A stretch of DNA of 64,000 nucleotides from Promethearchaeota archaeon (GTDB lineage Archaea; Asgardarchaeota; Lokiarchaeia; Sigyniarchaeales; SOKP01), in assembly GCA_019058295.1 (NCBI GenBank), contig JAHPZI010000028.1, forward strand, positions 96,001-160,000, given 5' to 3'. The notes under the pieces were generated by a model. That model had not been told where the DNA came from and made no database searches. It saw only the letters and a list, made by a program, of their open reading frames with translations. A program made the translations under genes and the position numbers. This document shows positions 25,884 to 63,100 of the stretch, one piece after another. Each line of letters opens with the position of its first letter. The stretch's first letter is position 1.

Positions 25884-25935
25884 TTTTATTAATAAATAAG
25901 TAGTTTAAACTTGATTTTTTGGTGATCTCAATATT

Positions 25936-27369
25936 TTGATGGTTTATAATAGCTTGACATTCCAGAAAGAGGAATTCAAAACAATCAAACCAAATGAAGT
26001 TCTAATGTATGTCTGTGGTCCCACGGTGTATGATAGCCCTCATTTGGGGCATGCTAAATCTGCTGTTGCTTTTGATCTTGTCCATCGTTATTTAAAGTTC
26101 AAAGGCTATAATGTGAAATTAGTAAAGAATTATACTGATATTGATGATAAAATAATACAAAGAGCAAATGAAAGGAACATAGATTTTAATTCATTAAGCG
26201 AGCAATATATAAAAGAATACGAGGATATCATGAATGCTTTAAACGTCGAAAAGGATTATATGAATCCACGAGCTACGGAAACCATCGATTTTATGATTGA
26301 AGTAATTCAAGGATTAATCAAAAATGAGCATGCGTATGAAAGAAATGGTTCTGTATATTATTCTGTTAAAACTTTTCCAAAATATGATTCGATATTTCAG
26401 AATGTAAAAAAAGGAGAGATACACGATGAAAATGAGGATATTGAAGATCAGGATATTGCCTATGGAGATGATAAAGAAGATCTCCGAGACTTTGCATTGT
26501 GGAAAAAACACAAAGAAGGAGAACCTTATTGGGAAAGTCCCTGGGGTAAAGGTCGCCCTGGATGGCATATTGAATGCTCGTCCATGTCAGTTAATATATT
26601 AGGTGAAACTCTTGATATCCATGGAGGAGGTCAAGATTTAAAATTTCCACATCATCGAAACGAAATAGCTCAATCAGAAGGGTATACAGGAAAGAAATTT
26701 GCAAATTATTTTATGCACAATGGCTTTGTTAATGTAGATGATGAAAAAATGTCAAAAAGCCTCGGAAATTTCTTTTTAGTTTCGGAGGTTATAAAAAATT
26801 ACGACCCAATGGTAGTAAGACTATTTCTATTTTCAAGCCATTATCGAAGTTCTATCAATTATTCTTTAGACAATATGAATCAAGCTAAAAAAAACTACAA
26901 TAGGCTTTTAAGTACTATTAGAAATATCCACGAGCTAAATATAAAAGATATTTCTTCTAAAAATATTAAAGAGTTGATTTTAGAAATCGAAAAGGCAGAA
27001 AAATCAATTATCGAAGCTATGGATGATGATTTTAATACTCCCATTGCTCTTGCTGAGTTCTTAGGATTATTTAGAGTAATAAACAGAGAAGTATTAGAAA
27101 ATAAAGTACCTATTAATAAAGATTTCAAGGATAAATTCTTTAATTTTGTAGATAATATGAATAAGATATTTGGTTTATTTCCAAATCTAAAAAGCCAATT
27201 AACACTAGGGGATGAGGTATCTCTTGATGAAAAGGGAACTACTATTCAGAATTTATTGAAAATTATTTATGATGTTAGAGCAGAGCTGAGAACCCGAAAA
27301 ATATATGACTTAAGTGATAAAATCCGTGATAAATTAAAAGAATTAGGCATTAATATTGAGGATAAATGA
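25936..27369 (+). CDS. cysS: Cysteine--tRNA ligase (possible true start ATT at 25933)
   Basis: YVCGPTVY, HLGH, DFALWK, GRPGWHIECS, FPHH.NE, KMSKS. Confidence 0.97.
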   Translation: MMVYNSLTFQKEEFKTIKPNEVLMYVCGPTVYDSPHLGHAKSAVAFDLVHRYLKFKGYNVKLVKNYTDIDDKIIQRANERNIDFNSLSEQYIKEYEDIMNALNVEKDYMNPRATETIDFMIEVIQGLIKNEHAYERNGSVYYSVKTFPKYDSIFQNVKKGEIHDENEDIEDQDIAYGDDKEDLRDFALWKKHKEGEPYWESPWGKGRPGWHIECSSMSVNILGETLDIHGGGQDLKFPHHRNEIAQSEGYTGKKFANYFMHNGFVNVDDEKMSKSLGNFFLVSEVIKNYDPMVVRLFLFSSHYRSSINYSLDNMNQAKKNYNRLLSTIRNIHELNIKDISSKNIKELILEIEKAEKSIIEAMDDDFNTPIALAEFLGLFRVINREVLENKVPINKDFKDKFFNFVDNMNKIFGLFPNLKSQLTLGDEVSLDEKGTTIQNLLKIIYDVRAELRTRKIYDLSDKIRDKLKELGINIEDK

Positions 27370-44533: not shown

Positions 44534-47500
44534 TTATTCAATTACTTCCATAGGTTTTCCATGGTGCTCTGGGATCGACTGTGCGCCACATGATGAACCC
44601 ATCCAGCAAACCAATTGGTTACCTTCTTTATGCATCGGCTTACCACAATGCATTGGTAAGTCTTGTTCAGCACCACATTCTACACACTTTAATTTTCCCA
44701 CTGTTTTTTCAACCTCCTTTTTTGAATTAATTATTTCTTCATTTTTTTCAATTTCAATATAGTTCTCGGGATTTTTTTTAAATTCAGCAACGCATGATTG
44801 ATTGCAAAAATAATATTTTTTTCCGTTATATTCATGTTCAATCCATTCTTCTGGCTTCCCCTTCATGCCACATACAGGATCCGTAACGAGCTTCTCTTCC
44901 TCTATGCCCTTATGCATTAATTTTGGATCAATGTTGCCAAAGTCCTTATATTTTTCAGGATCTCGTTTAAATTCTACTTCACATGATGAGCTGCAGAAAT
45001 AATATCTCTCACCATTATATTTATACTCAATTGATTGGCTAGGTATTATTTCCATTCCACAGATAGGATCGATTACTTTTTTCTCCACTAGTAATTTTTC
45101 TTCTTGTAGTTGCTGTTCAGTTTTAGGTTCATATCTCTTTAATAATAATGCATTTGTTACAACAGAAACAGAACTTGAAGCCATGAAAATTGCTGCTAAA
45201 TAAGGAGGAAGAAAATATCCAGTAAAGGCAAATAATAATCCAGCTGCTAAAGGAATTCCAATAAGGTTATATATAAATGCCCAGAAAAGGTTAGTAATCA
45301 TCTTTTTATATGTTTTCTGAGATAAATTAATTGCCGCAACCACATTTCTTAAATCTCCTCGCATAAGAACGATATCAGCTGTTTCAATAGCTACATCTGT
45401 CCCAGATCCAATTGCAATTCCAACATCTGCCTGTGCCAATGCAGGGGCATCATTTATTCCATCTCCAACCATAGCAACTTGTATATTATCACCAGAATCT
45501 TGGAGTTTTTTGATGGTCAATGCTTTTTCATTAGGTAATACTTCAGCTAAGATATGATTTTCATCAAAGTTTAAATCCGTTCCAATACTCATCGCGGTTT
45601 GTTTATTATCACCAGTTAACATATATATATCCATTCCTTTCTCTCGTAATTTTTCAAGAGCATAAGGAGCTTGATCTTTTACTCTATCAGCTATACCGAT
45701 GATCCCTTTAATTTGATCATCTATACTAACTAACATTGTAGTATTCCCTTTTTCTTGGTTTTCAATGAATTTAGAATTATATTCAGTAAAATCTAAATTA
45801 TTTTCTAAAAACAATTTTTCATTACCAATTAAAACTCGTTTATTATCTATTTTTGTTATTAGCCCTTTTCCTGGTATTGCATCAAATTCACTGGGAGACA
45901 CTAATGCTAAGCCTTCTTGATTTGCCTCTTCAATAATAGCTTGCCCAAGAGGATGCTCAGAACCCATCTCAGCACTTCCAGCAAAATAAAGAATGTCTTT
46001 TTTTGTTAAACCATTTCCTGTTAAATCATTTTCAGAATAAATTATTGTAACTTTTGGTTTTCCAATAGTTAAAGTACCCGTCTTATCAAAAACAATTGTA
46101 TTAATATTGTTTACAGATTCTAAAGAGTCACCACCTTTCATGAGAATACCATTTTCGGCACCTTTCCCTGTTCCAACCATAATTGCTGTGGGGATTGCTA
46201 ACCCTAAAGCGCACGGACAAGAAATTACTACTATTGATGTAAAAACTAATAACGCAACTTCAAGACCTAAATTTGCTATAAAAAACCAATACAAAAATGC
46301 AAGAGTAGCTGTTATAATTACAATCGGTACAAAATAACTACTTACTTTATCAGCCAAACGTTGTCTTGAACCTTTTCGAGCTTGAGCATCTTTAACAAAA
46401 TCAATTATTTGAAAAAGGAGAGTATCTTTCCCAATTTTTTCAGTTCTCATTTTAATTAATCCAGTTTGATTTACAGTAGCTCCTATAACATCATCACCAA
46501 TTTCTTTTTTAATATACTTACTTTCACCTGTTATCATAGATTCATCAATTTTAGTCTTACCTTCAATTACTTTACCATCAACCGGTATTTTTTCACCAGG
46601 TCTAACAATTAATGTATCACCTATTTCTATCTCTTCAATAGGAATTTCAATTTCTTCACCATCTCTTAATAATGTTGCATTCTTTGGTTGTAACCCTATG
46701 AGTTTTTTTATAGCTTCAGATGCCTGGCCTTTTGTTTTATGTTCTAAATATTTCCCTACTAATATAAATGCAAAAATCATACTCATGGCATCATAAAACA
46801 CTTCACCAGAAATAAAAAATGTAGTCATAACTGAATAAAAATAAGCTGTCGCCGTTCCTAAAATAATCAACACATCCATATTTGTCGTCCGATTTCGCAA
46901 AGATTTATACGCGCCCTTTAGGAAAAAAGATCCTGATATTGCGAAGTTAAAAGTTGCTAGAATCGTTAGGATTAGATTTCGTGTAAAAGTAATAGGTACA
47001 ATAAAATTTATTGGAGTGATTACTGCTGCAAATACTAATGAAATTATAAGAAGGATCAAACGATTTTTCATTTCTTTTTTATGCTGTTCAATTTCTTTAT
47101 CAATGGCTCCCGCTACTTTTTCTATTTTATATCCGAAGCTTTTAACGAGTGAAAAAATTTCATTTTCACTTAATTTTAATTCGTTAAATTCAATGAAGAA
47201 TTTTCTTGCTTCAAAATTGCTCCTAACATGCTGTATACCATTAATTTGTTGAATTTTATTTTCTAACATATTAAACTCATTTTCTGTAAGTGTATCAATG
47301 ATTCCAATGTCCATCTTCGCAAGCGATGCTTTATATCCCAAATTTTTAATAGCACTATTGAAATTATTATAATTCACTATCTTAGGATTGTATTCAACAG
47401 TTGCTTCTTCATTTGCAAAATTTACAACAGAACTATTAACCCCCTCTAGTCCTTTTAGTTTAGTTTCTATTTTTAACGCACAGGAAGCACAAGTCATCCC

Positions 47501-47542
47501 ACCAAGTTTTATTTTAATTTTTTCTTTAGCTTGTTCTTCTAT
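44534..47542 (-). CDS. copA: Cu(I)-translocating P1B ATPase with N-terminal HMA and C-terminal YHS domains (start extended to ATA at 47542)
   Basis: [43 protein letters not shown]; two DP(I/V)CGM...YYFC YHS domains. Confidence 0.95.
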
Positions 47543-47758
47543 TTTATTTCACCTCGGTTTATCATAAAAAAATATCTAATGAGATTATTATAAGTTTTGT
47601 TTATATTTTGTAAATATAGCCTCTCTAATTCTCCTTCAGAATCAAGAAATGTTCTCAGATAACTCACCATATAAAAATAATAATTTTTTCGAATAATGAT
47701 TGCAAATGTCGTTTTTTCTCTGTTACCATTATTTTAAATTCAAAGATATTTTTTATAG

Positions 47759-47798
47759 ATATTACCTTGAAGTATATATAGAAAAGTATATATTTAAA
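47759..47798 (-). promoter_or_regulatory. Conserved promoter/operator copy 1 (upstream of copA)
   Basis: 35/40 identical to 48694-48733; contains minus-strand TTTAAATA TATA box. Confidence 0.7.
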
Positions 47799-47994
47799 AA
47801 TTATCTTTATAATTAATAAAAATATAATGAATCTCACTTTTATCTTAAATTCTGATAAATTTTATTCTAAAATTCTATTTTGCCCCATCTTCTTTCTTAA
47901 AATATTAATGTTTCAGTAAAAATCGTATTTTTAATTTTTTATTAAGGTCTAGAAATAATAATTAAAAAAAATTGGTTTGTTTTTTAAAATTGGT

Positions 47995-48294
47995 TTAAAT
48001 TTCACTTCCACAATATGGGCATAATTTCAATGTTTTATCGTCTAATTCTTCACCACAATTAGGACAAAAATAAGGATTCTTTTCTTCCATCTCTTCAATC
48101 AAGCCAACTTTTGGGGATTCTTGATTGGATAATGCAAAATCTTTATTCTTACTTGTTCCTCGAAATAACAGGTAAATAAGAATAATTACAATTAAAAGAA
48201 AAATAAAAAAGCCCAAAATCATGTAAATCCATATATTTGGATCCCAACCCATCATTGATCCATCCATGTGATCATCCATATGGTCAAAAATCAT
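47995..48294 (-). CDS. Single-TM protein with His/Met-rich N-terminus and C-terminal double zinc ribbon
   Basis: DHMDDHMDGSMMG; TM; CPNCG...CPYCG. Confidence 0.8.
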   Translation of the reverse strand: MIFDHMDDHMDGSMMGWDPNIWIYMILGFFIFLLIVIILIYLLFRGTSKNKDFALSNQESPKVGLIEEMEEKNPYFCPNCGEELDDKTLKLCPYCGSEI

Positions 48295-48328
48295 TTAATC
48301 AACTCCTTTTTATTTAAATTATTTTTCA

Positions 48329-48625
48329 TTATTTATTCTTATTTTCCACAGTTTTAACAGATGTACTCTCGCTGTAATTATGTCTTACCAATAAATAAAG
48401 TATTAAACCGATTACATTAAGAATAAAAGCAATTATTAACCACGTTTCAGAATTAGCGATTCCTCTTCTTATGGCATCTTTATGGACATAATAAGCAATT
48501 ATTATGCTTACAGTGAAATAAATTATCCACCATAATAACATAAAGATCCACCAAAATGGACCAAATATATAAATCCACCAATCCATCATATCATACCCAT
48601 CATGATGATTTTCATCAAAAATCAT
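48329..48625 (-). CDS. Small membrane protein with His/Met-rich N-terminus (PLDc_N-like)
   Basis: HHDGYDMMD; YV.KDA.RRG...W......N.IGLILYL. Confidence 0.75.
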   Translation of the reverse strand: MIFDENHHDGYDMMDWWIYIFGPFWWIFMLLWWIIYFTVSIIIAYYVHKDAIRRGIANSETWLIIAFILNVIGLILYLLVRHNYSESTSVKTVENKNK

Positions 48626-48693
48626 ATTAGCACCTTTTTTGACAATAGTTTTTTATTTGTATAATTTAGTTTTCTATTTTATTGATTTTATTT

Positions 48694-48733
48694 ATATTAC
48701 CTTGGGGTATATATGATAAAGTATATATTTAAA
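48694..48733 (-). promoter_or_regulatory. Conserved promoter/operator copy 2
   Basis: atattaccttggggtatatatgataaagtatatatttaaa, between the membrane-protein operon and the divergent regulator. Confidence 0.7.
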
Positions 48734-48828
48734 TATAATTATTATTTTATATAAAATAAGAATAAATATAATCAACAGGGAAAGTCATTTTTTTTTACCT
48801 TAACTCATAAATTAAGGTGATTTGCTGA

Positions 48829-49272
48829 TTGTTAGAAAAGAATGAAATTAAAGTTCAAAATCTTACAAGGTTTTATACTTTAGCGTTGTTGAAATCAAAA
48901 AAGTCGGTTACTGGCTATTATGTTCTAAAACGACTTGAAGCAGATCTAGGAAAAACAGCCAGTCCTACATATGTTTATGACTTTTTAAAAAAGCTTAAAT
49001 CCGAAGGATTTATTAAAGATGTTCAGATTCCAAAGTCAAAGCGATCAGGTGGTTATCAACTTACTCCTTTAGGTTCGAAATTTGTCGATAGAATCTTTAC
49101 TCGATTTGATAACTTAATAGAAGTAGCAATCCAATCAAAATTAAAAATTTGTGCAAGTTGTGGTGTCAAGCTTTATGATAATTTTTACGTTGAAAAGATT
49201 GGAGGTAAAGAGTTGATTTTCTGTTGTGAACATTGTGCAATGGCTTATAAAAATTTTAATCACAATCATTGA
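48829..49272 (+). CDS. PadR-family regulator with C-terminal TRASH metal-binding domain
   Basis: GY..LK.L, SP.YVY.FL..L...G.I, Y.LT..G; CASCG...FCCEHC. Confidence 0.85.
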   Translation: MLEKNEIKVQNLTRFYTLALLKSKKSVTGYYVLKRLEADLGKTASPTYVYDFLKKLKSEGFIKDVQIPKSKRSGGYQLTPLGSKFVDRIFTRFDNLIEVAIQSKLKICASCGVKLYDNFYVEKIGGKELIFCCEHCAMAYKNFNHNH

Positions 49273-49375
49273 AAAGAACTATGTGAAATAACAAACGTTT
49301 CCCTCAATTTCAGAAGATATGAGCTGAATTTCTTTACTCTTTTATCTAGAATGAAGTTTTAAAAAAATTATACAC

Positions 49376-49756
49376 TTATTTTTTTTTCTCACGGTATACT
49401 TTAATCGCTTCTTTTAATCCATCTGCAACCATAACACTACAATGAATTTTAGGTTCAGGTAATCCACCCAAGGCCTCAACGATTTCCAATTTAGTAATTT
49501 TTTCTGCATCTTCTAAAGTTTTCCCTTTTGCCATCTCGGTGGCAATGCTGGATGAGGCTATAGCTGCTGCGCATCCGAAGGTCTCAAATGAAATGTCATC
49601 AATAATTTCTTGTCCACTTTCTTTTTTTACCTTAATATATACGTGCATATAATCTCCGCATTCAGCACTTCCGGCCGTCCCTACAGCGTCAGCATCTTTC
49701 ATTTCTCTTTGATTTCTGGGATTCTTGAAGTGTTCTAGTACTATATCAGTATAAAT
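49376..49756 (-). CDS. iscU: Fe-S scaffold IscU/NifU paralog (start extended to ATT at 49756)
   Basis: YTDIVLEHFKNPRN, ECGD, TFGCAAAIA, LP.PKIHCS. Confidence 0.92.
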   Translation of the reverse strand: MYTDIVLEHFKNPRNQREMKDADAVGTAGSAECGDYMHVYIKVKKESGQEIIDDISFETFGCAAAIASSSIATEMAKGKTLEDAEKITKLEIVEALGGLPEPKIHCSVMVADGLKEAIKVYREKKK

Positions 49757-49843
49757 TATTAAACACCTCTCAATAAAATATTTATTTACAATTTTAAAAT
49801 AGGTTTCAAGGATTTAAAACTTAATGTTTAGGAAAAGGAGAAC

Positions 49844-50212
49844 TTATTTTTGTTTTTCACGATACTTTTCTATCGCTTTATGTAATCCATCCGCAGCTAA
49901 ATTGCTACAGTGCATTTTGATTGGTGGAAGACCATCTAAGGCATCAGCCACATCACTTCTAGTTATCTCTAATGCTTCGTCCAATGTTTTCCCTTTTGCC
50001 ATCTCAGTGACCATACTTGAAGTAGCTATAGCAGCCCCACAGCCGAAGGTTTGAAAAGAAATATCATCTATTTTATCTTCTTTTACCTTAATATAAATAT
50101 ACATAAGATCTCCACATACAGGATTGCCAACCTCACCGACGGCGTCAGCATCCTCCATTTCACCCATATTTCGGGGATTCTTAAAATGTTCCATTACTTT
50201 ATCAGAATAAAT
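49844..50212 (-). CDS. iscU: Fe-S scaffold IscU/NifU (probable start ATT at 50212; TTG at 50230 is an alternative)
   Basis: YSDKVMEHFKNPRN, NPVCGD, TFGCGAAIA, LPPIKMHCS. Confidence 0.95.
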   Translation of the reverse strand: MYSDKVMEHFKNPRNMGEMEDADAVGEVGNPVCGDLMYIYIKVKEDKIDDISFQTFGCGAAIATSSMVTEMAKGKTLDEALEITRSDVADALDGLPPIKMHCSNLAADGLHKAIEKYREKQK

Positions 50213-50534
50213 TATGACCACCTTAATCAAAAGATAAATAATTATAGTTAAAAATTTAATGATTTTGGATAATAATAATTCATTTTATCAAAATTATTAA
50301 AAACCTAATGAAAAAGTTTATTCAAAAAAGTAGTTAGTGTTGTTTTTAATATTTTATAAATAATAAATTTAAAACAGCTCATTCATATTTTAGATAAATA
50401 ATTGATATAATAGAATATTTATGAATTCCAATGAAATTTTTTAAAAATAATAAAAAACTTTCTATTGTATGTATATTTTACATTATTTAACACATTCAAT
50501 TTACAAAATTGACTAATGATTTGTGAGGAAGCCC

Positions 50535-51536
50535 ATGAAATATTTTCAAAACGTACTGAAATTAATTGGTAGAACCCCTTTAGTCCGCATCAATAAAATT
50601 AATCCGAATAAAAATGTTCTTATGTTGGCTAAATTAGAAAAATACAATCCAGCAGGTTCCGTGAAAGAAAGAATAGCTATAACTATGATAGAAGAAGCTG
50701 AAAAACAAGGAATTTTAACCAAAGATAAGATAATTATAGAACCAAGTTCTGGTAATACTGGAATTGGATTGGCATTGGTTTGTGCAGTAAAGGATTATCA
50801 ATTAGAGATCGTTATGCCTGAAACGATGTCGATTGAACGCCGTAAGATAATGACGGTTTATGGAGCAAAAATAACATTAACTCCAGGAGATAAGGGGATG
50901 GATGGTGCAGAGGATTACGTTGAAGAAATAGTATCGAAAAATCCAGATAAATATTTCTATCCACATCAGTTCTCAAATGAAAATAATCCCCTTGCACATT
51001 ATAGATATACGGCTGGAGAAATAATTAATGATACAGATGGGGAATTAGACGTATTTATTGCAGGTTTGGGTACATCTGGAACATTAATGGGTGTTTCTAA
51101 ACGATTAAAAGAGTATAATCCTAAAATAAAAGTTATAGCAGTTGAACCAGTTCCTAATGCTCCTATTCAAGGTTTAAAAAGCTTAAAAACTTCATATGTA
51201 CCAGCGATTTACGACGAATCAAGAATAGATGAGAAAATTTATGTTTCAATGGAAGATGCCGAACATTTATCTCGAATGTTAGCATTACAAGAGGGCATTT
51301 TTTGTGGTATCAGTTCGGGAGCAGCTATGCATGTCGCTCTTGAAACTGCTAAAAAAATGGATTCTGGAACTATAGTCGTTCTTTTACCAGATGGAGGTGA
51401 AAAATATATCTCTGATCCAATATTCACTCCGGAGAAATGTCTCGCCTGTCAATACCAGTGTAAAGTGACAACGCTATGGACCGAAGATTACATAAAATCT
51501 ATTTCTGAATGGTGGGAAAAAACAGAATCTAAATAA
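50535..51536 (+). CDS. cysK: Cysteine synthase (CysK/CysM family)
   Basis: IG.TPLV, KLE..NPAGSVKER, SSGNTG, GTSGT, GISSGA; ATG after GAGG. Confidence 0.92.
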   Translation: MKYFQNVLKLIGRTPLVRINKINPNKNVLMLAKLEKYNPAGSVKERIAITMIEEAEKQGILTKDKIIIEPSSGNTGIGLALVCAVKDYQLEIVMPETMSIERRKIMTVYGAKITLTPGDKGMDGAEDYVEEIVSKNPDKYFYPHQFSNENNPLAHYRYTAGEIINDTDGELDVFIAGLGTSGTLMGVSKRLKEYNPKIKVIAVEPVPNAPIQGLKSLKTSYVPAIYDESRIDEKIYVSMEDAEHLSRMLALQEGIFCGISSGAAMHVALETAKKMDSGTIVVLLPDGGEKYISDPIFTPEKCLACQYQCKVTTLWTEDYIKSISEWWEKTESK

Positions 51537-51623
51537 CTCCTTTTATTATATTTTAATAGAAATAGAGAAATATTTTTAAAAATTTCTTCGAAAAGATTTA
51601 AATATATAGTAGATAAATTATAA

Positions 51624-51908
51624 ATGATGACAAAAGAAAAAGGCATTGACAAAGAAAGTCTATTAAGTTATATAAAAAAGGCAATTAAGTTATTATGTGA
51701 AAACAACTTATCTGAAGTGGTAATTTTATCATCTTACAAAATAAATTCTGTTCTAAAGGAGAATTTCGGCGTTAACATAAAAGTCGATAAAATTGGGAGA
51801 ATATTAAGCGGTATAGCTAAGCGAAATCAATTAAAAAGATTAAGTACCTCAATACCTAAATACAAATTACGAATATCTAATTTCTCCAGTTTGAAATTTA
51901 AGATTTGA
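51624..51908 (+). CDS. Small basic hypothetical protein (possible winged helix)
   Basis: 94 aa, basic, helix-turn-helix-like spacing. Confidence 0.5.
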   Translation: MMTKEKGIDKESLLSYIKKAIKLLCENNLSEVVILSSYKINSVLKENFGVNIKVDKIGRILSGIAKRNQLKRLSTSIPKYKLRISNFSSLKFKI

Positions 51909-53229
51909 TTATTTTTTTTAATTTTTCAGTTGCTAAATTCATTTCTTTATAAGTTTCTTTAAGATTATTCAGTTCTGTGTTCAATTTTTCAATTTCATTT
52001 GTAATATTCTGCTCTAAAGATGATATATCCGTTGATATGATATTCTCTATTTTATTAGAGAAATTTTCTGTCTCGTTTGAGACTTCTGTGATGTTTTCTG
52101 AGGTCTTGTTCACTGATTCTTCCAACTTAAAGGTTAAACTGCTAGAATTGCTAATTTTATCTGAAAGGTCTTTTAAATTATTTTCTATGTGATTCATAAT
52201 ATTCTTAAAGTTTGTTTCTACGAGGTTATTTAAATCGTTCAAAATCTCGTCTTTAGATGAAGATAATTGGGTTATTAAATCTCTTTGGGCGTCAATCCGA
52301 ATATCTAAATACATAGATATATTTTCCTTAAAGTTTTCAGCAATTTCATCTAAATTTCTTTTAAACCAGTTTGCTACATTGGAAATTCCGTCAGAGATTT
52401 TACCTTTCATATTACTCGTTGAATTTTTCAGAAGCTCAGATCCGGTTAATGCCCCATCTCTAATATCTTTAGTCCAGGTACCTAATTGATGTTCAAATTG
52501 ATCCATAAATAAATCTGCAAATTTTGAAGTTCCTTCTTGAAATCCTGAAATTATTGGTCCTAGGGCGAGTATAGGTTCTTTTGACATAGGGATCTCTTGG
52601 AGATCATCAAGAGGAGATTCCGCCAATTCATTAATTTCTCTGATTAGGATTGGTGCTTTTTTCTGAGTATCTTCAACTAATTTTTGAACCCATTTAAAAT
52701 AGTCAAGAGTGCTTGGAAATTCCAACTCGTATTCAACTTTATGATATTCATTATTTTTATCGTCGGAAGAATCATTTAATCTATAAATTTCAAAACCTAA
52801 ATTCCCTTCTTTACCCATTAAAGTGTGATCGAAAACAACATAAAAACCATAGGGTTTTTGTTCATTCTGGAAAAAGGAATGGTGGGTTTTGATTGCTGAA
52901 TCAGAAAAAAATAGCCCCCATCCTGGGTGGGATGAGTACCAACCTACTATATTCATTTTTTTGCTAGCATATCTATTTTCAATTTCAGAAAAAGTATTAT
53001 AATCATCTGAATTAAAACCTATTGATATTTTTTTTCCATGAGTGATAGGTATGGCATTAATAAGATCAATATCTTTATCGTTTAATTTACCAATGCAAAT
53101 TCCCATCACCTCAACACTTTCGTCTAATGCTTCATTTCCAAATCTTAAAACATGCGTTATCATGTTTCTAAACGCCTCTTTTTTAATTTTTATCTTTCCT
53201 TCTCCTGAATTTTCTTTTTGTGTCGGCAT
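51898..53229 (-). CDS. JAB/MPN domain protein with degenerate JAMM motif plus C-terminal helical/coiled-coil region
   Basis: EVMG retained; GWYSSHPGWGLFFSDSA lacks the first His and the Asp. Confidence 0.88.
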   Translation of the reverse strand: MPTQKENSGEGKIKIKKEAFRNMITHVLRFGNEALDESVEVMGICIGKLNDKDIDLINAIPITHGKKISIGFNSDDYNTFSEIENRYASKKMNIVGWYSSHPGWGLFFSDSAIKTHHSFFQNEQKPYGFYVVFDHTLMGKEGNLGFEIYRLNDSSDDKNNEYHKVEYELEFPSTLDYFKWVQKLVEDTQKKAPILIREINELAESPLDDLQEIPMSKEPILALGPIISGFQEGTSKFADLFMDQFEHQLGTWTKDIRDGALTGSELLKNSTSNMKGKISDGISNVANWFKRNLDEIAENFKENISMYLDIRIDAQRDLITQLSSSKDEILNDLNNLVETNFKNIMNHIENNLKDLSDKISNSSSLTFKLEESVNKTSENITEVSNETENFSNKIENIISTDISSLEQNITNEIEKLNTELNNLKETYKEMNLATEKLKKIIKS

Positions 53230-53234
53230 TTTAG

Positions 53235-54689
53235 TTATTCACCCCCTCCTTCTAGATTTTTAATTTTATTTAATAAATCCTCCTTCTGAGACTCCATTTC
53301 TTTTAATTTATCATTTAAAGATTTAAAAGTGGCTTCAATTTCAGATGATGATGAATCATAATTCGATAAAAATTCTTGTGTTTCATTACGGTAATCAGTA
53401 AATTTATTTAATATATTAGCTATTTTTTCTTTTAAATTGCTTTCAATTTTTCCACAAAATCCCCTTAATTTTTCTGAAGTTAACCTTTCTAAAGATTTAG
53501 TCTTTTCAGATATTTTTTCTAAAGATAATCTTTGTTGAGCTAAACTTTCTGAAGAGAGTTTATTTTTTTGATTAATTTCTGTCAATTTATTTGAATTTTC
53601 AGCGAAATTTTCACTAATTTTATTTAATAAACCATTGACGTTTTGTTCAAATAATTCATTTATCTGTGTAGGGAGTTCTTCTTTTAATTTTTCAATAAAA
53701 TTTTTTGCAATTTCATTGTTTTTATCAAAATTTTCAAACTGATCACCTATATAGGTCTCAAGATCATCTAGCTTATATTTTAATGAGAATTTAAAATTAT
53801 TCTGAAGCTTATCAATTCCTTTCCTTAAATCATCTTTTAAATCAACTAAATCATCTCTAATTTGAATATTATTTTCCATTATATTTTTTATAATCTCTTG
53901 GCTCCAAGAGTTTAAAAAATTTATTAGTGGTTCAATAGATAATTGTAAAAATTGCGAAATTCCATTATGTAAAGCTGAGAGAATATCTTCTAAATTTAAT
54001 TGGGGCTTAGCCGCTAATAATTCCCTTTTGCTTGGAAAGAAAATCTCGCCGAAAAGATCAGGGGTTTCGTTAATCTCCAAAATTGGGGGTTCTTTTGAGT
54101 GAATACAATTAATTAATTCCATTATTTTAAAGTAATAATCTATACTGTCAGGAGGTTCTACAATAGTTTCTACCTCATGATAATCTGATTTTTGACCCTT
54201 GGACGGATCATCAAGTCTAAAAGTTCTAAAACCTAAATCTCCCTGATTTTCTAAAAAAGTATGATCAAAAACTATGCCTATAGCGCTAGGATTTGGAGTT
54301 TGCCAACCCAGCTGATTTATTTTGTCTACTCCCGAGAAAAAAATGTTTAACCCAGGATGTGAATGGAACCAACCAACACTGAAAAGCCCCTTATCAGCGT
54401 ATTTTTCATCTATTAGAGCAAAAGACACATAATCTTCAGGAGCAAAAGCAACCTCAATCGAACCGCCATGCGAAATTGGCACAGCATCTTCAACAATTAT
54501 ATTTTTAATGCCCCTTTTATTTGGTTCACCTTCAAGGCGTCCAATAAGTATTCCCATTACTTCCTTGTATTGTCTCTGATCTCTTACTCTATTACCAAAT
54601 CGCAATATATGGACGAGCATTTTGTAATAGGCAAGTGGTTTGATAAGGACGGACCTATCGCTCTCTTGATGACGTTTACTCAAATTCAT
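53235..54689 (-). CDS. JAB/MPN+ metalloprotease plus C-terminal helical/coiled-coil region
   Basis: EVMG; GWFHSHPGLNIFFSGVD is an intact HxH-x7-S-x2-D. Confidence 0.92.
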   Translation of the reverse strand: MNLSKRHQESDRSVLIKPLAYYKMLVHILRFGNRVRDQRQYKEVMGILIGRLEGEPNKRGIKNIIVEDAVPISHGGSIEVAFAPEDYVSFALIDEKYADKGLFSVGWFHSHPGLNIFFSGVDKINQLGWQTPNPSAIGIVFDHTFLENQGDLGFRTFRLDDPSKGQKSDYHEVETIVEPPDSIDYYFKIMELINCIHSKEPPILEINETPDLFGEIFFPSKRELLAAKPQLNLEDILSALHNGISQFLQLSIEPLINFLNSWSQEIIKNIMENNIQIRDDLVDLKDDLRKGIDKLQNNFKFSLKYKLDDLETYIGDQFENFDKNNEIAKNFIEKLKEELPTQINELFEQNVNGLLNKISENFAENSNKLTEINQKNKLSSESLAQQRLSLEKISEKTKSLERLTSEKLRGFCGKIESNLKEKIANILNKFTDYRNETQEFLSNYDSSSSEIEATFKSLNDKLKEMESQKEDLLNKIKNLEGGGE

Positions 54690-54795
54690 TCACTTTTTTT
54701 TAAAATTTAGATTTGTTAATTCTTATTATTAATATAATTTAACGATTTTAAAATACTATTTATAGAATAAAAAAGAGTAAAATTTTTCCTAAATA

Positions 54796-55524
54796 TTAAT
54801 GCTTATGAGGTATTTCGCGACCGCAGTCTGGACAATATTTAGGAATCAAATTTTTACCGCAATAAGGGCAAAATTCTGATGATTTTTCACTAACTTCCTC
54901 TGTCGAAACTACAGCAGATGATTTTTCACTAACTTTTTCTGTCGAAACTTCAGCAGATGCAGGAGTTTCTTGAGGAGTACCTCCTGGAATTGAAGGTAAT
55001 TTTCTTTTTGTTTTTATAGTAGATGAAGCAGATGCCTGTTCTTCTTTTGCTCTTTCAGCAGCCACTCTTTCTTTAAATGCTTTTCGCTGTTCTTCTAACT
55101 TCTCCTCTTGAGTTTGTTCACCTTCTTGTTTCACCCAACCAGGACCCTTAAAAGCACCTTTGATCTCACTTTGAGGTACTTTTTCTAATTCAACTTTTTT
55201 CGTTTCAGCAACAGGTGCAACAGCTCTTTTTTCTTGTTTTTTACTAATTGCTTGTTTTATTAACGCTTGAGTTGTTTTCATAATTTGGTGTGGGTTTATA
55301 TTTGGTAGCGTAATAGTTCGTAGGACCCAGCCAACAATATAATTCTGATTTGGAAAGTCTCCATCTCCCATTTCAGCATCTTTATATACATAAGAATCGA
55401 TTACGTCCTTACCTTTAAGAAGGCGAGACGCCCAGCGTTTATTTATAAGTCCCAGTTGTAATCGATAAGAAGTACCTGAAATTCCCAACTGGGATGATAA
55501 GGGGATGAAACCTTGTTCTGTAAT
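54796..55524 (-). CDS. Hypothetical protein with low-complexity linker and C-terminal double zinc ribbon (start extended to ATT at 55524)
   Basis: CPYCG...CPDCG; AAGGTGA SD at 55531-55537; 39-nt duplication at 54878-54955. Confidence 0.75.
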   Translation of the reverse strand: MTEQGFIPLSSQLGISGTSYRLQLGLINKRWASRLLKGKDVIDSYVYKDAEMGDGDFPNQNYIVGWVLRTITLPNINPHQIMKTTQALIKQAISKKQEKRAVAPVAETKKVELEKVPQSEIKGAFKGPGWVKQEGEQTQEEKLEEQRKAFKERVAAERAKEEQASASSTIKTKRKLPSIPGGTPQETPASAEVSTEKVSEKSSAVVSTEEVSEKSSEFCPYCGKNLIPKYCPDCGREIPHKH

Positions 55525-55686
55525 GATATTTCACCTTATTATTATTGTAATATTTTGATTATGATTATTATAATAATTATAATTTTACTAATTTATAATT
55601 TTATATGCAAGAAAAAGCATAAATAGAAAAAGTTTTATTATGAATCAACAAGCTTAAAAATATAATAAAAAAACTCATAATAAAAA

Positions 55687-56643
55687 ATGACTGTAATTAT
55701 CCCAAAAAAAGCTTATTTAACTATCGTAGCAGCGTCTGTTAGATTTGCAAATCCTAAGATTCCCTTTGACGATTGGTTAGAAATATATGGTATTTTTACG
55801 GGAAAATCTTCCAAGAATGGTAAGGATTTAATAATTACTGAAGCATATAATATAACACACCAAGTAAAAAGGGAAGAGGATATAATAGACAAGGTATATT
55901 GGTCTGATGAAGATTATATCTCATTTAGTATGATTGATGACGATGCTTTTTCAAGAGGCGAATATACAGTAGGATGGTACCATTCTCATCCTGGTCACAG
56001 AGTAATGATGACTAGTTTAGATATTCGCACTACAGCAACTTATCAACAATATAATCCTCTTGCAGTTTCTCTTGTATTTAATCCACAACGATTAACCAGA
56101 CAAATTGAAGTTCCAGCAAGAAAAGGAGATCCCGAACTAAGATTGGATTGCGATCCCGGTTTTAAAATTTTTAGATTGGGCAATCCTGAAGATGTTGATT
56201 CAAATTACCATGAAGTATATGATTATAAGATTGATGGATTTGAAAGTGAAGAGCAATTAGTAGAATATGCTAAAAAGTTCGCTATAGAAATAACAGATTT
56301 ATTTCCTAAAGATAATGTTGTTGAATCATATAATAATTACGTCAATGATAAATTAAGACAATTAAACTCATTATTGATGGGAACTGAAGATTATTTGAAA
56401 TCATTAGCTCGAAAAGATGAAAAAAGTAGGATCCCTGAAGTGTTAGAAAATCAAAAAAAAGAGATTAATAAATTTGTAGCAGAAACATATGTTAAAATAG
56501 AAAATATGAAAGAATTCCTTGATTATCTCGAATATAAAGAAAAAGATGTTATCATTCCAAAAGTTAAGGACGTCTTATCCAATTGGGATGAAAATATAGC
56601 TAATTTAGATAAGAAATTAGATGAATTATCAAAAAAATTCTAA
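55687..56643 (+). CDS. JAB/MPN domain protein plus C-terminal helical bundle
   Basis: LEIYG; GWYHSHPGHRVMMTSLD (Ser replaced by Thr). Confidence 0.88.
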   Translation: MTVIIPKKAYLTIVAASVRFANPKIPFDDWLEIYGIFTGKSSKNGKDLIITEAYNITHQVKREEDIIDKVYWSDEDYISFSMIDDDAFSRGEYTVGWYHSHPGHRVMMTSLDIRTTATYQQYNPLAVSLVFNPQRLTRQIEVPARKGDPELRLDCDPGFKIFRLGNPEDVDSNYHEVYDYKIDGFESEEQLVEYAKKFAIEITDLFPKDNVVESYNNYVNDKLRQLNSLLMGTEDYLKSLARKDEKSRIPEVLENQKKEINKFVAETYVKIENMKEFLDYLEYKEKDVIIPKVKDVLSNWDENIANLDKKLDELSKKF

Positions 56644-59989: not shown

Positions 59990-60097
59990 TATTTTAATTC
60001 ACTTGCTATTTCTAACAATAAATTATAGAATTAAGGAGAATTTAATTAAATTAGCATAATAAATATTTCTTTAAATTCTCTATCTATTATTTTATTA

Positions 60098-62380: not shown

Positions 62381-63100
62381 TCAAGTGAAAATTGGACAAT
62401 TAATCTTTTCACATCTGTCATTAATACCCGAAAATCTACACTTTATTGGTTCGTAATTTAAAACAATATCAAATTTCTCTTTTAAGAACTTTAATGTTTC
62501 AATAATAGATATTTTTACAGATCTTTTACAGCAATGTTCTAGATTATCTGCGATTTTAGCTAATACTTTTGATGTCATTTGATTTGCTAGTGTTCTTTCT
62601 TTATCTTTTGACGGAGTAGCTCCTGTAAATATACTAATAGCAATCCCAGCGCCCATACCAGCACCACATGTGCCATAAAAACCACACCACCCCCCAGGTA
62701 TTTTGGATGCTCTTTTAATTGCCTCTTTAATATCCATAAAGGTTATATCGTCCCCGTTGGGTTTTTTTACATCATTATTTTTTAAAGCTGTTAATATAAC
62801 TGCTGGGGTTAACACATGATGTTCAGGGCCATAAACTTTAAAATTATTATGCATCATAATCTTATCAGCTATTTCAAAAGGATTTTTTAAATCTGTATTT
62901 TCACAAAATCTTGTTATTATTTCGATTGGAACATTGGAATGGCATGAATCGCATATATAATGACCATTTGGGCAATAGATATTTACAACATCCCGTTTTA
63001 AACAGAATTCACATTGAAGTTCTTTTCGATCATCTAATTGAGTTGCGTAGACTAACTCATGACCACAAATTTCGCATTTATCCTTCTTTTTTTCTGACAT
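62381..63100 (-). CDS. DUF5714-like Cys-rich protein
   Basis: C..C, C..GHY.CD.CH, GPEHH, PGG.CGF.G.CGA, CCKRS. Confidence 0.8.
   Translation of the reverse strand: MSEKKKDKCEICGHELVYATQLDDRKELQCEFCLKRDVVNIYCPNGHYICDSCHSNVPIEIITRFCENTDLKNPFEIADKIMMHNNFKVYGPEHHVLTPAVILTALKNNDVKKPNGDDITFMDIKEAIKRASKIPGGWCGFYGTCGAGMGAGIAISIFTGATPSKDKERTLANQMTSKVLAKIADNLEHCCKRSVKISIIETLKFLKEKFDIVLNYEPIKCRFSGINDRCEKINCPIFT

Follow-up and report, generated by a model that had tools for sequence, protein, structure and literature searches.

Near-cognate codons behind strong Shine-Dalgarno motifs as probable translation starts in a family of Lokiarchaeial genomes

Results

Genes and candidate start codons at the locus

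The window (the whole stretch of 64,000 nucleotides that was analysed) lies on contig C28 of a metagenome bin of 3.2 Mb with 31% GC and an estimated completeness of 79%. The source organism is an uncultured Asgard archaeon of Loki type; its family is denoted here f1, and the sister family f2 includes genome G055. The window contains genes for the copper-translocating ATPase CopA, two copies of the scaffold protein IscU, a conserved zinc-ribbon protein and cysS (Table 1). The zinc-ribbon protein is 98% identical to that of Promethearchaeota isolate AMARA_1S, the nearest named record, with Loki_b32 and others next.

Table 1. Candidate near-cognate starts in the window and the genes that they would open
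Feature	Position	Strand	SD motif and start	Spacing from GGTG (nt)	Product or match
copA start region	47540..47555	-	GAGGTGA (TGA in frame), 6-nt spacer, ATA 47542	7	
copA	44534..47542	-	ATA 47542		Copper-translocating P1B-type ATPase, 1002 aa from ATA; Pfam HMA, TIGR01511
iscU copy 1	49376..49756	-	GAGGTG, ATT 49756	7	IscU/NifU scaffold, 126 aa from ATT
iscU copy 2	49844..50212	-	AGGTG, ATT 50212	6	IscU/NifU scaffold, 122 aa from ATT
Zinc-ribbon gene	54796..55524	-	AGGTGA (TGA in frame), ATT 55524	7	Conserved Loki zinc-ribbon protein, 242 aa from ATT
cysS start region	25921..25941	+	GGTGATC, then ATT 25933, TTG 25936, ATG 25939	8	

The first-pass annotation had proposed that these five genes start with ATT or ATA behind strong Shine-Dalgarno (SD) motifs, and all five combinations of motif and codon are indeed present, with a spacing of 6-8 nt in every case. 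The in-frame TGA that had been noticed within the SD motifs of copA and the zinc-ribbon gene is also there, two codons ahead of the candidate start.

In copA, iscU copy 1 and the zinc-ribbon gene, the conserved coding sequence begins upstream of any ATG, GTG or TTG. The first ATG of copA, at codon 16, encodes the Met of the metal-binding motif GMTCxxC, and a start there would, as proposed, remove the first strand of the HMA domain; the Pfam HMA match at residues 12-71 covers profile positions 3-62, and the TIGR01511 score is above the cut-off. No canonical codon precedes the conserved N-terminus of IscU copy 1, again in agreement with the earlier claim, the first one being codon 19; the NifU_N match begins at residue 2, and the ATT codon is aligned to Met1 of a solved archaeal IscU (PDB 4EB5 chain C). 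The zinc-ribbon gene has its first canonical codon, a TTG, at codon 13. Selenocysteine read-through of the in-frame TGA was considered for this gene and for copA, and was rejected: the stretch from the preceding stop to the TGA contains no canonical start, and thus neither an upstream start nor read-through supplies the N-terminus. The codons upstream of the TGA are not conserved across orthologs of the two genes.

The remaining two cases are less clear-cut. For iscU copy 2 the motif stands, but the ATT is not forced, as in-frame alternatives exist at TTG 50230, at GTG 50221 (which lies inside the SD motif) and at an ATG at codon 7. TIGR03419 matches this protein above its cut-off from model position 1, and it is orthology that argues for the ATT start. 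The motif is likewise present at cysS, but TTG and ATG follow the ATT directly, and in 24 of the 28 other orthologs the start column is that of the TTG, the ATT column being used in 4. The start of cysS is ambiguous; the TTG fits most orthologs, and cysS is probably not a near-cognate case. The observation of apparent near-cognate starts holds for four of the five genes, including the second iscU copy by orthology.

Truncated forms of CopA (987 aa), IscU copy 1 (108 aa) and the zinc-ribbon protein (230 aa) are present in public collections, and the extended forms of IscU and of the zinc-ribbon protein are absent from the collections checked. Two further candidates in the window, at 60050 and 63124, were not counted; they have weak SD motifs and a good ATG just downstream.

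Between copA and iscU (47995-49272) lie genes for two small membrane proteins in tandem, whose N-termini are rich in His and Met, and a divergent gene of 147 aa that has a TTG start behind a strong SD motif, a Cys-rich C-terminus and no NCBIfam match; the genes of this interval are possibly copper-related. A cysteine synthase-like gene beside the iscU pair has an in-frame ATG at 50535. The zinc-ribbon gene is surrounded by three JAB/MPN-domain genes with long helical tails (51898-56643), and a region on the reverse strand (62381-63100) matches positions 34-266 of the 468 positions of the double selenoprotein model MbdU, with a score below the cut-off.

Start columns of orthologous genes

Alignment of ortholog N-termini, which the first-pass annotation had suggested as a check, places the near-cognate codons in the column of the orthologous Met1, where relatives have ATG, TTG or GTG. 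Among 33 distinct Loki copies of iscU, the start column holds ATT in 13, ATA in 10 (in one of them a codon upstream), ATC in 1, GTA in 1 and ATG in 8, so that 24 of 33 have ATT, ATA or ATC (ATH). In the ATH copies, codons 2-6 change only synonymously or conservatively while the codons upstream vary freely, and in 10 of them a TGA lies in frame three codons ahead of the start; many iscU orthologs offer an ATG at codon 7. At 72 iscU loci of other archaea and bacteria, the start is canonical throughout. A TTA in the start column of iscU in genome G006 was rejected as a start, being explained by the ATA one codon upstream. The GTA, which differs from ATG at two positions, belongs to the iscU of genome G034 (locus L003), where its distance from GGTG is 7 nt and a TGA lies upstream in the same frame; it is a single case, and GTA is not enriched genome-wide.

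The 26 distinct orthologs of the zinc-ribbon gene have ATG (10), TTG (9), GTG (3), ATT (2) or ATA (2) in the start column. Orthologs of copA mostly have ATG, TTG or GTG there; four of 30 loci lack a canonical start (ATA in three, CTG in one), each codon lying 7 nt after GGTG, and the relatives concerned are G201 and G207 with ATA and G153 with CTG. When iscU and the zinc-ribbon gene are pooled, an SD match of at least 5 nt precedes 22 of 28 ATH starts, 9 of 12 TTG or GTG starts and 1 of 18 ATG starts, counts for which no p-value is given because related genomes are not independent. In the orthologs of these two genes, near-cognate starts thus carry stronger SD motifs than ATG starts.

The ribosomal protein operon follows the same pattern. 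Some genomes of family f1 have ATH where others have ATG, at uS3 and uL22 in the source genome and at uL22, uL14, uS14 and eS4 in its relatives; the gene names are presumptive, having been assigned from operon order and general knowledge. The operons of three f2 genomes contain no ATH starts. The PF00181 profile had no match in the Loki genomes.

Genome-wide distribution

Initial tallies against the raw background diluted the signal, and a first scan of ortholog columns was dominated by antisense ORFs and internal Met/Ile changes; stricter tests were used instead. For the codon tally behind SD motifs, another check proposed at the outset, the first ten codons of ORFs of at least 100 codons were considered ahead of any canonical codon, with an SD match of at least 5 nt at a spacing of 6-8. 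ATT, ATA, ATC, CTG or ACG met these conditions in 60 of 1233 instances, compared with 16 of 5570 for other codons, an excess much larger than chance would produce. The 60 comprise ATT (25), ATA (23), CTG (5), ATC (4) and ACG (3), and enrichment is limited to these five codons, each of which is one mismatch from AUG; AAG, AGG, TTA, GTA and GTT showed no enrichment in the same test. The spacing is 7 in 40 of the 60 cases, and 7 is also the mode for ATG, which is spread over 5-11. This corresponds to about 2.2% of 2638 ORFs, which is a lower bound; by our estimate, at least 2-5% of genes in the source genome and its family most probably have near-cognate starts. Among the strong-SD starts of the f1 lineage, near-cognates make up between about a fifth and a quarter. 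The functions of the roughly 60 cases are mixed and presumably include, from motifs and general knowledge, ribosomal proteins, an RNA polymerase subunit, and HisA-like, flavodoxin-like and ABC proteins.

In an independent comparison with genome G006, covering 630 ortholog pairs, 21 genes combined a conserved extension with a near-cognate codon backed by an SD motif, in addition to cases with weaker SD motifs such as uL22. Two of the 21 were discounted as probable selenoprotein genes broken at TGA. These two ORFs, on contigs C18 and C1 (strand offsets +23088 and -19966), open directly behind a TGA that lies in frame within a Cys-x-TGA-Gly context; they probably reflect selenocysteine in HdrA-like proteins, which mimics near-cognate starts. 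Among extensions of at least 15 codons, an SD motif of 5 nt was found in 11 of 38, compared with 1-2% in control windows, and some of the genome-wide extensions span 50-110 conserved codons.

The same excess of near-cognates was observed in G006 and in G033/G016. In G044 it was weak (6 of 347 ORFs, p 0.02), and G050 and G055 showed none of it (0 of 125, a small sample). No excess was found in 1242 ORFs of Methanobacteriales, Bathyarchaeia, other archaea and bacteria, although these controls are GC-richer and small.

Initiation factor and initiator tRNA genes

Neither aIF1 nor 16S rRNA nor a recognisable initiator tRNA was found in searches of the source assembly, which is 79% complete, and the arguments concerning all three therefore rest on relatives. 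In all 20 f1 copies of aIF1 (L102-L120 and L166), ATT, ATC or ATA occurs 6-7 codons before the zinc knuckle CxxC, preceded by a weak SD motif, and 16 of these copies lack a canonical codon after the upstream stop. Copies from f2 start with TTG or ATG. Unlike iscU or copA, the aIF1 start shows no reversion to ATG in the f1 sample. The first-pass annotation had proposed that aIF1 be inspected for changes in start-fidelity residues; the basic L1 loop is kept in the f1 proteins, and no fidelity-breaking change was identified. In other Asgard families, four aIF1 genes (L073, L093, L096 and L162) have no canonical codon before the zinc knuckle and offer ATA or CTG as candidates, and many others have GTG or TTG.

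Outside the window, the source genome has 27 tRNA genes, all without introns, in a divergent array among ordinary-looking chromosomal genes (C22:30303-33335). The array includes a tRNA-Ile with the anticodon UAU, which is unusual for archaea.

Discussion

The near-cognate codons are very probably real translation starts, and their use appears to be a habit of the Lokiarchaeial family f1. The original proposal that AUU and AUA initiation is frequent in this lineage is backed by the ortholog start columns, the genome-wide positional test and the outgroup controls. In the published model of archaeal initiation, the SD motif anchors the 30S subunit, the codon in the P site is tested for pairing with Met-tRNAi, and a poor match is made unstable by aIF1 (PMC6412873). 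The 16S 3' end of genomes of the same order is complementary to the SD motif, and the spacing peaks at 7. Pairing of the two would keep the near-cognate codon in the P site, where the ordinary Met-tRNAi (CAU) would match two of its three bases and the protein would begin with Met; a strong SD motif at spacing 7 could hold a one-mismatch codon long enough for initiation. Start-codon proofreading in f1 may be loose enough to permit drift from ATG to ATH in an AT-rich genome, given a strong and well-spaced SD motif. If such changes are tolerated whenever the SD motif is strong, most cases would be nearly neutral and not gene-specific switches.

It should be noted that the same sequences could be read in other ways. 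Translation might begin at the next canonical codon and yield shorter proteins, the upstream similarity being a remnant of ancestral ATG starts. The shorter forms are those in public databases, and the ATG at codon 7 is available in the second iscU copy and in many iscU orthologs; nevertheless, this possibility is quite improbable, as the extensions are conserved at the protein level, in some genome-wide cases over the 50-110 codons mentioned above, the first HMA strand of CopA and the first helix of IscU copy 1 would be missing, and the sharp peak at spacing 7 would be left unexplained. That assembly or consensus errors changed ATG to ATT or ATA might be suspected of a metagenome bin, but identical codons occur in an independent assembly (G007/AMARA_1S), and some two dozen other genomes also have ATH in the corresponding column, a recurrence that excludes this explanation. 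A dedicated tRNA or an altered code, with AUA read as Met or an initiator tRNA carrying a UAU or GAU anticodon, might be seen in the tRNA-Ile(UAU) of the 27-gene array. This tRNA lacks the three G-C pairs of the initiator anticodon stem, five different codons are in use, and at least ten genomes of the family have standard initiator-type CAU anticodon arms, as judged by pattern match only. Internal ATA codons are aligned to Ile in 52-64% and to Met in 3-6% of cases (64% and 3% in G033), and thus code for Ile; recoding of AUA as Met is excluded, and the wider idea of a special tRNA or code is highly improbable.

A further reading, which the first-pass annotation had raised for the Cys/Fe-S genes, is that near-cognate starts serve to regulate genes for cysteine, Fe-S clusters or metals. 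Both copies of iscU do cluster with copA within 3 kb, adjoining a cysteine synthase-like gene, and the high ATH share of iscU could mean selection for low or tunable output. The proposal is not supported, and we consider it unlikely: the start of cysS is probably its TTG, an ATG is present in the cysteine synthase-like gene, the iscU pair consists of tandem paralogs from a single family, iscU and copA switch between ATG and ATH among close relatives, and the genome-wide set spans unrelated functions.

The proofreading factor itself, aIF1, could set the looseness of proofreading, with its own ATH start acting as a negative feedback like those of bacterial infC and eukaryotic eIF1; the persistence of ATH at aIF1, which never reverts to ATG in the f1 sample, matches the prediction of feedback of this type. 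This part of the interpretation is more speculative, with about an even chance of being right. The full proposal, that start-codon selection in f1 is relaxed globally, at a set point maintained by autoregulation of aIF1 via its own AUU, AUC or AUA start, is put forward tentatively, and we would rate it at somewhat below even.

In bacteria, near-cognate starts behind SD motifs are known for single genes, and only a handful of genes with such starts are known in E. coli. The infC gene (IF3) of E. coli has an AUU start and is under translational autoregulation (Butler 1987, reviewed in PMC4705826). The f1 lineage resembles it in the near-cognate AUU start behind an SD motif and, in the relatives, in the conserved ATH start of a proofreading-factor gene; it differs in that archaeal aIF1 and aIF2 are not IF3, at least 60 genes are concerned, most cases switch freely with ATG, and feedback on aIF1 is a candidate. 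The same review covers autoregulation of eIF1 by a poor start context (Ivanov 2010, reviewed in PMC4705826). aIF1 is a homolog of eIF1 and has a poor start in f1, but eIF1 starts from an AUG whose Kozak context is poor and depends on scanning, whereas aIF1 has a non-AUG codon behind a weak SD motif. It is also described there that aIF1 of S. solfataricus rejects AUU in vitro (PMC4705826).

Reviews of archaeal translation list AUG, GUG and UUG only as starts (PMC7531240, PMC6412873). The anti-SD and the SD-positioned local search for a start codon are the same in f1, the difference being the share of near-cognates, about a fifth to a quarter, among its strong-SD starts. Compensation between start codon and SD motif is known for AUG, GUG and UUG in prokaryotes (Belinky, Rogozin, Koonin 2017, PMC5622118). 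In f1, weaker start codons likewise pair with stronger SD motifs, but the compensation reaches AUU, AUA, AUC, CUG and ACG, and near-cognate starts would thus extend the known trade-off. The one published ATT start found for Asgard archaea concerns a single gene, AtubA of Kariarchaeaceae, which was truncated in GenBank, was corrected to an ATT start behind a ribosome binding site and was described as rare (PMC13394414). The f1 cases are similar in having ATT behind such a site and a truncated database form, but AtubA is one gene of another Asgard class, and no lineage-wide pattern was reported for it. In the literature searched, mostly outside subscription journals, near-cognate starts as a lineage-wide habit of Asgard archaea were not found to be described. 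SD motifs have been stated to be rare in Lokiarchaea (PMC12993045), a statement that may be biased because the SD-led genes are the mis-started ones.

Standard gene finders would shorten the proteins with such starts, and database entries of f1 probably lack their N-termini, as seen here for CopA, IscU copy 1 and the zinc-ribbon protein; for Asgard proteins this matters whenever structures are predicted, genes are expressed heterologously or domains are surveyed. Initiation at AUU, AUA, AUC, CUG and ACG in dozens to a hundred or more genes per f1 genome, including genes for ribosomal proteins, would revise the current picture of archaeal initiation, and would bear on the origin of strict AUG selection in eukaryotes. 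If the feedback on aIF1 is real, it would be an archaeal counterpart of the infC and eIF1 feedback loops in the lineage nearest to eukaryotes, tuning several percent of the proteome at once.
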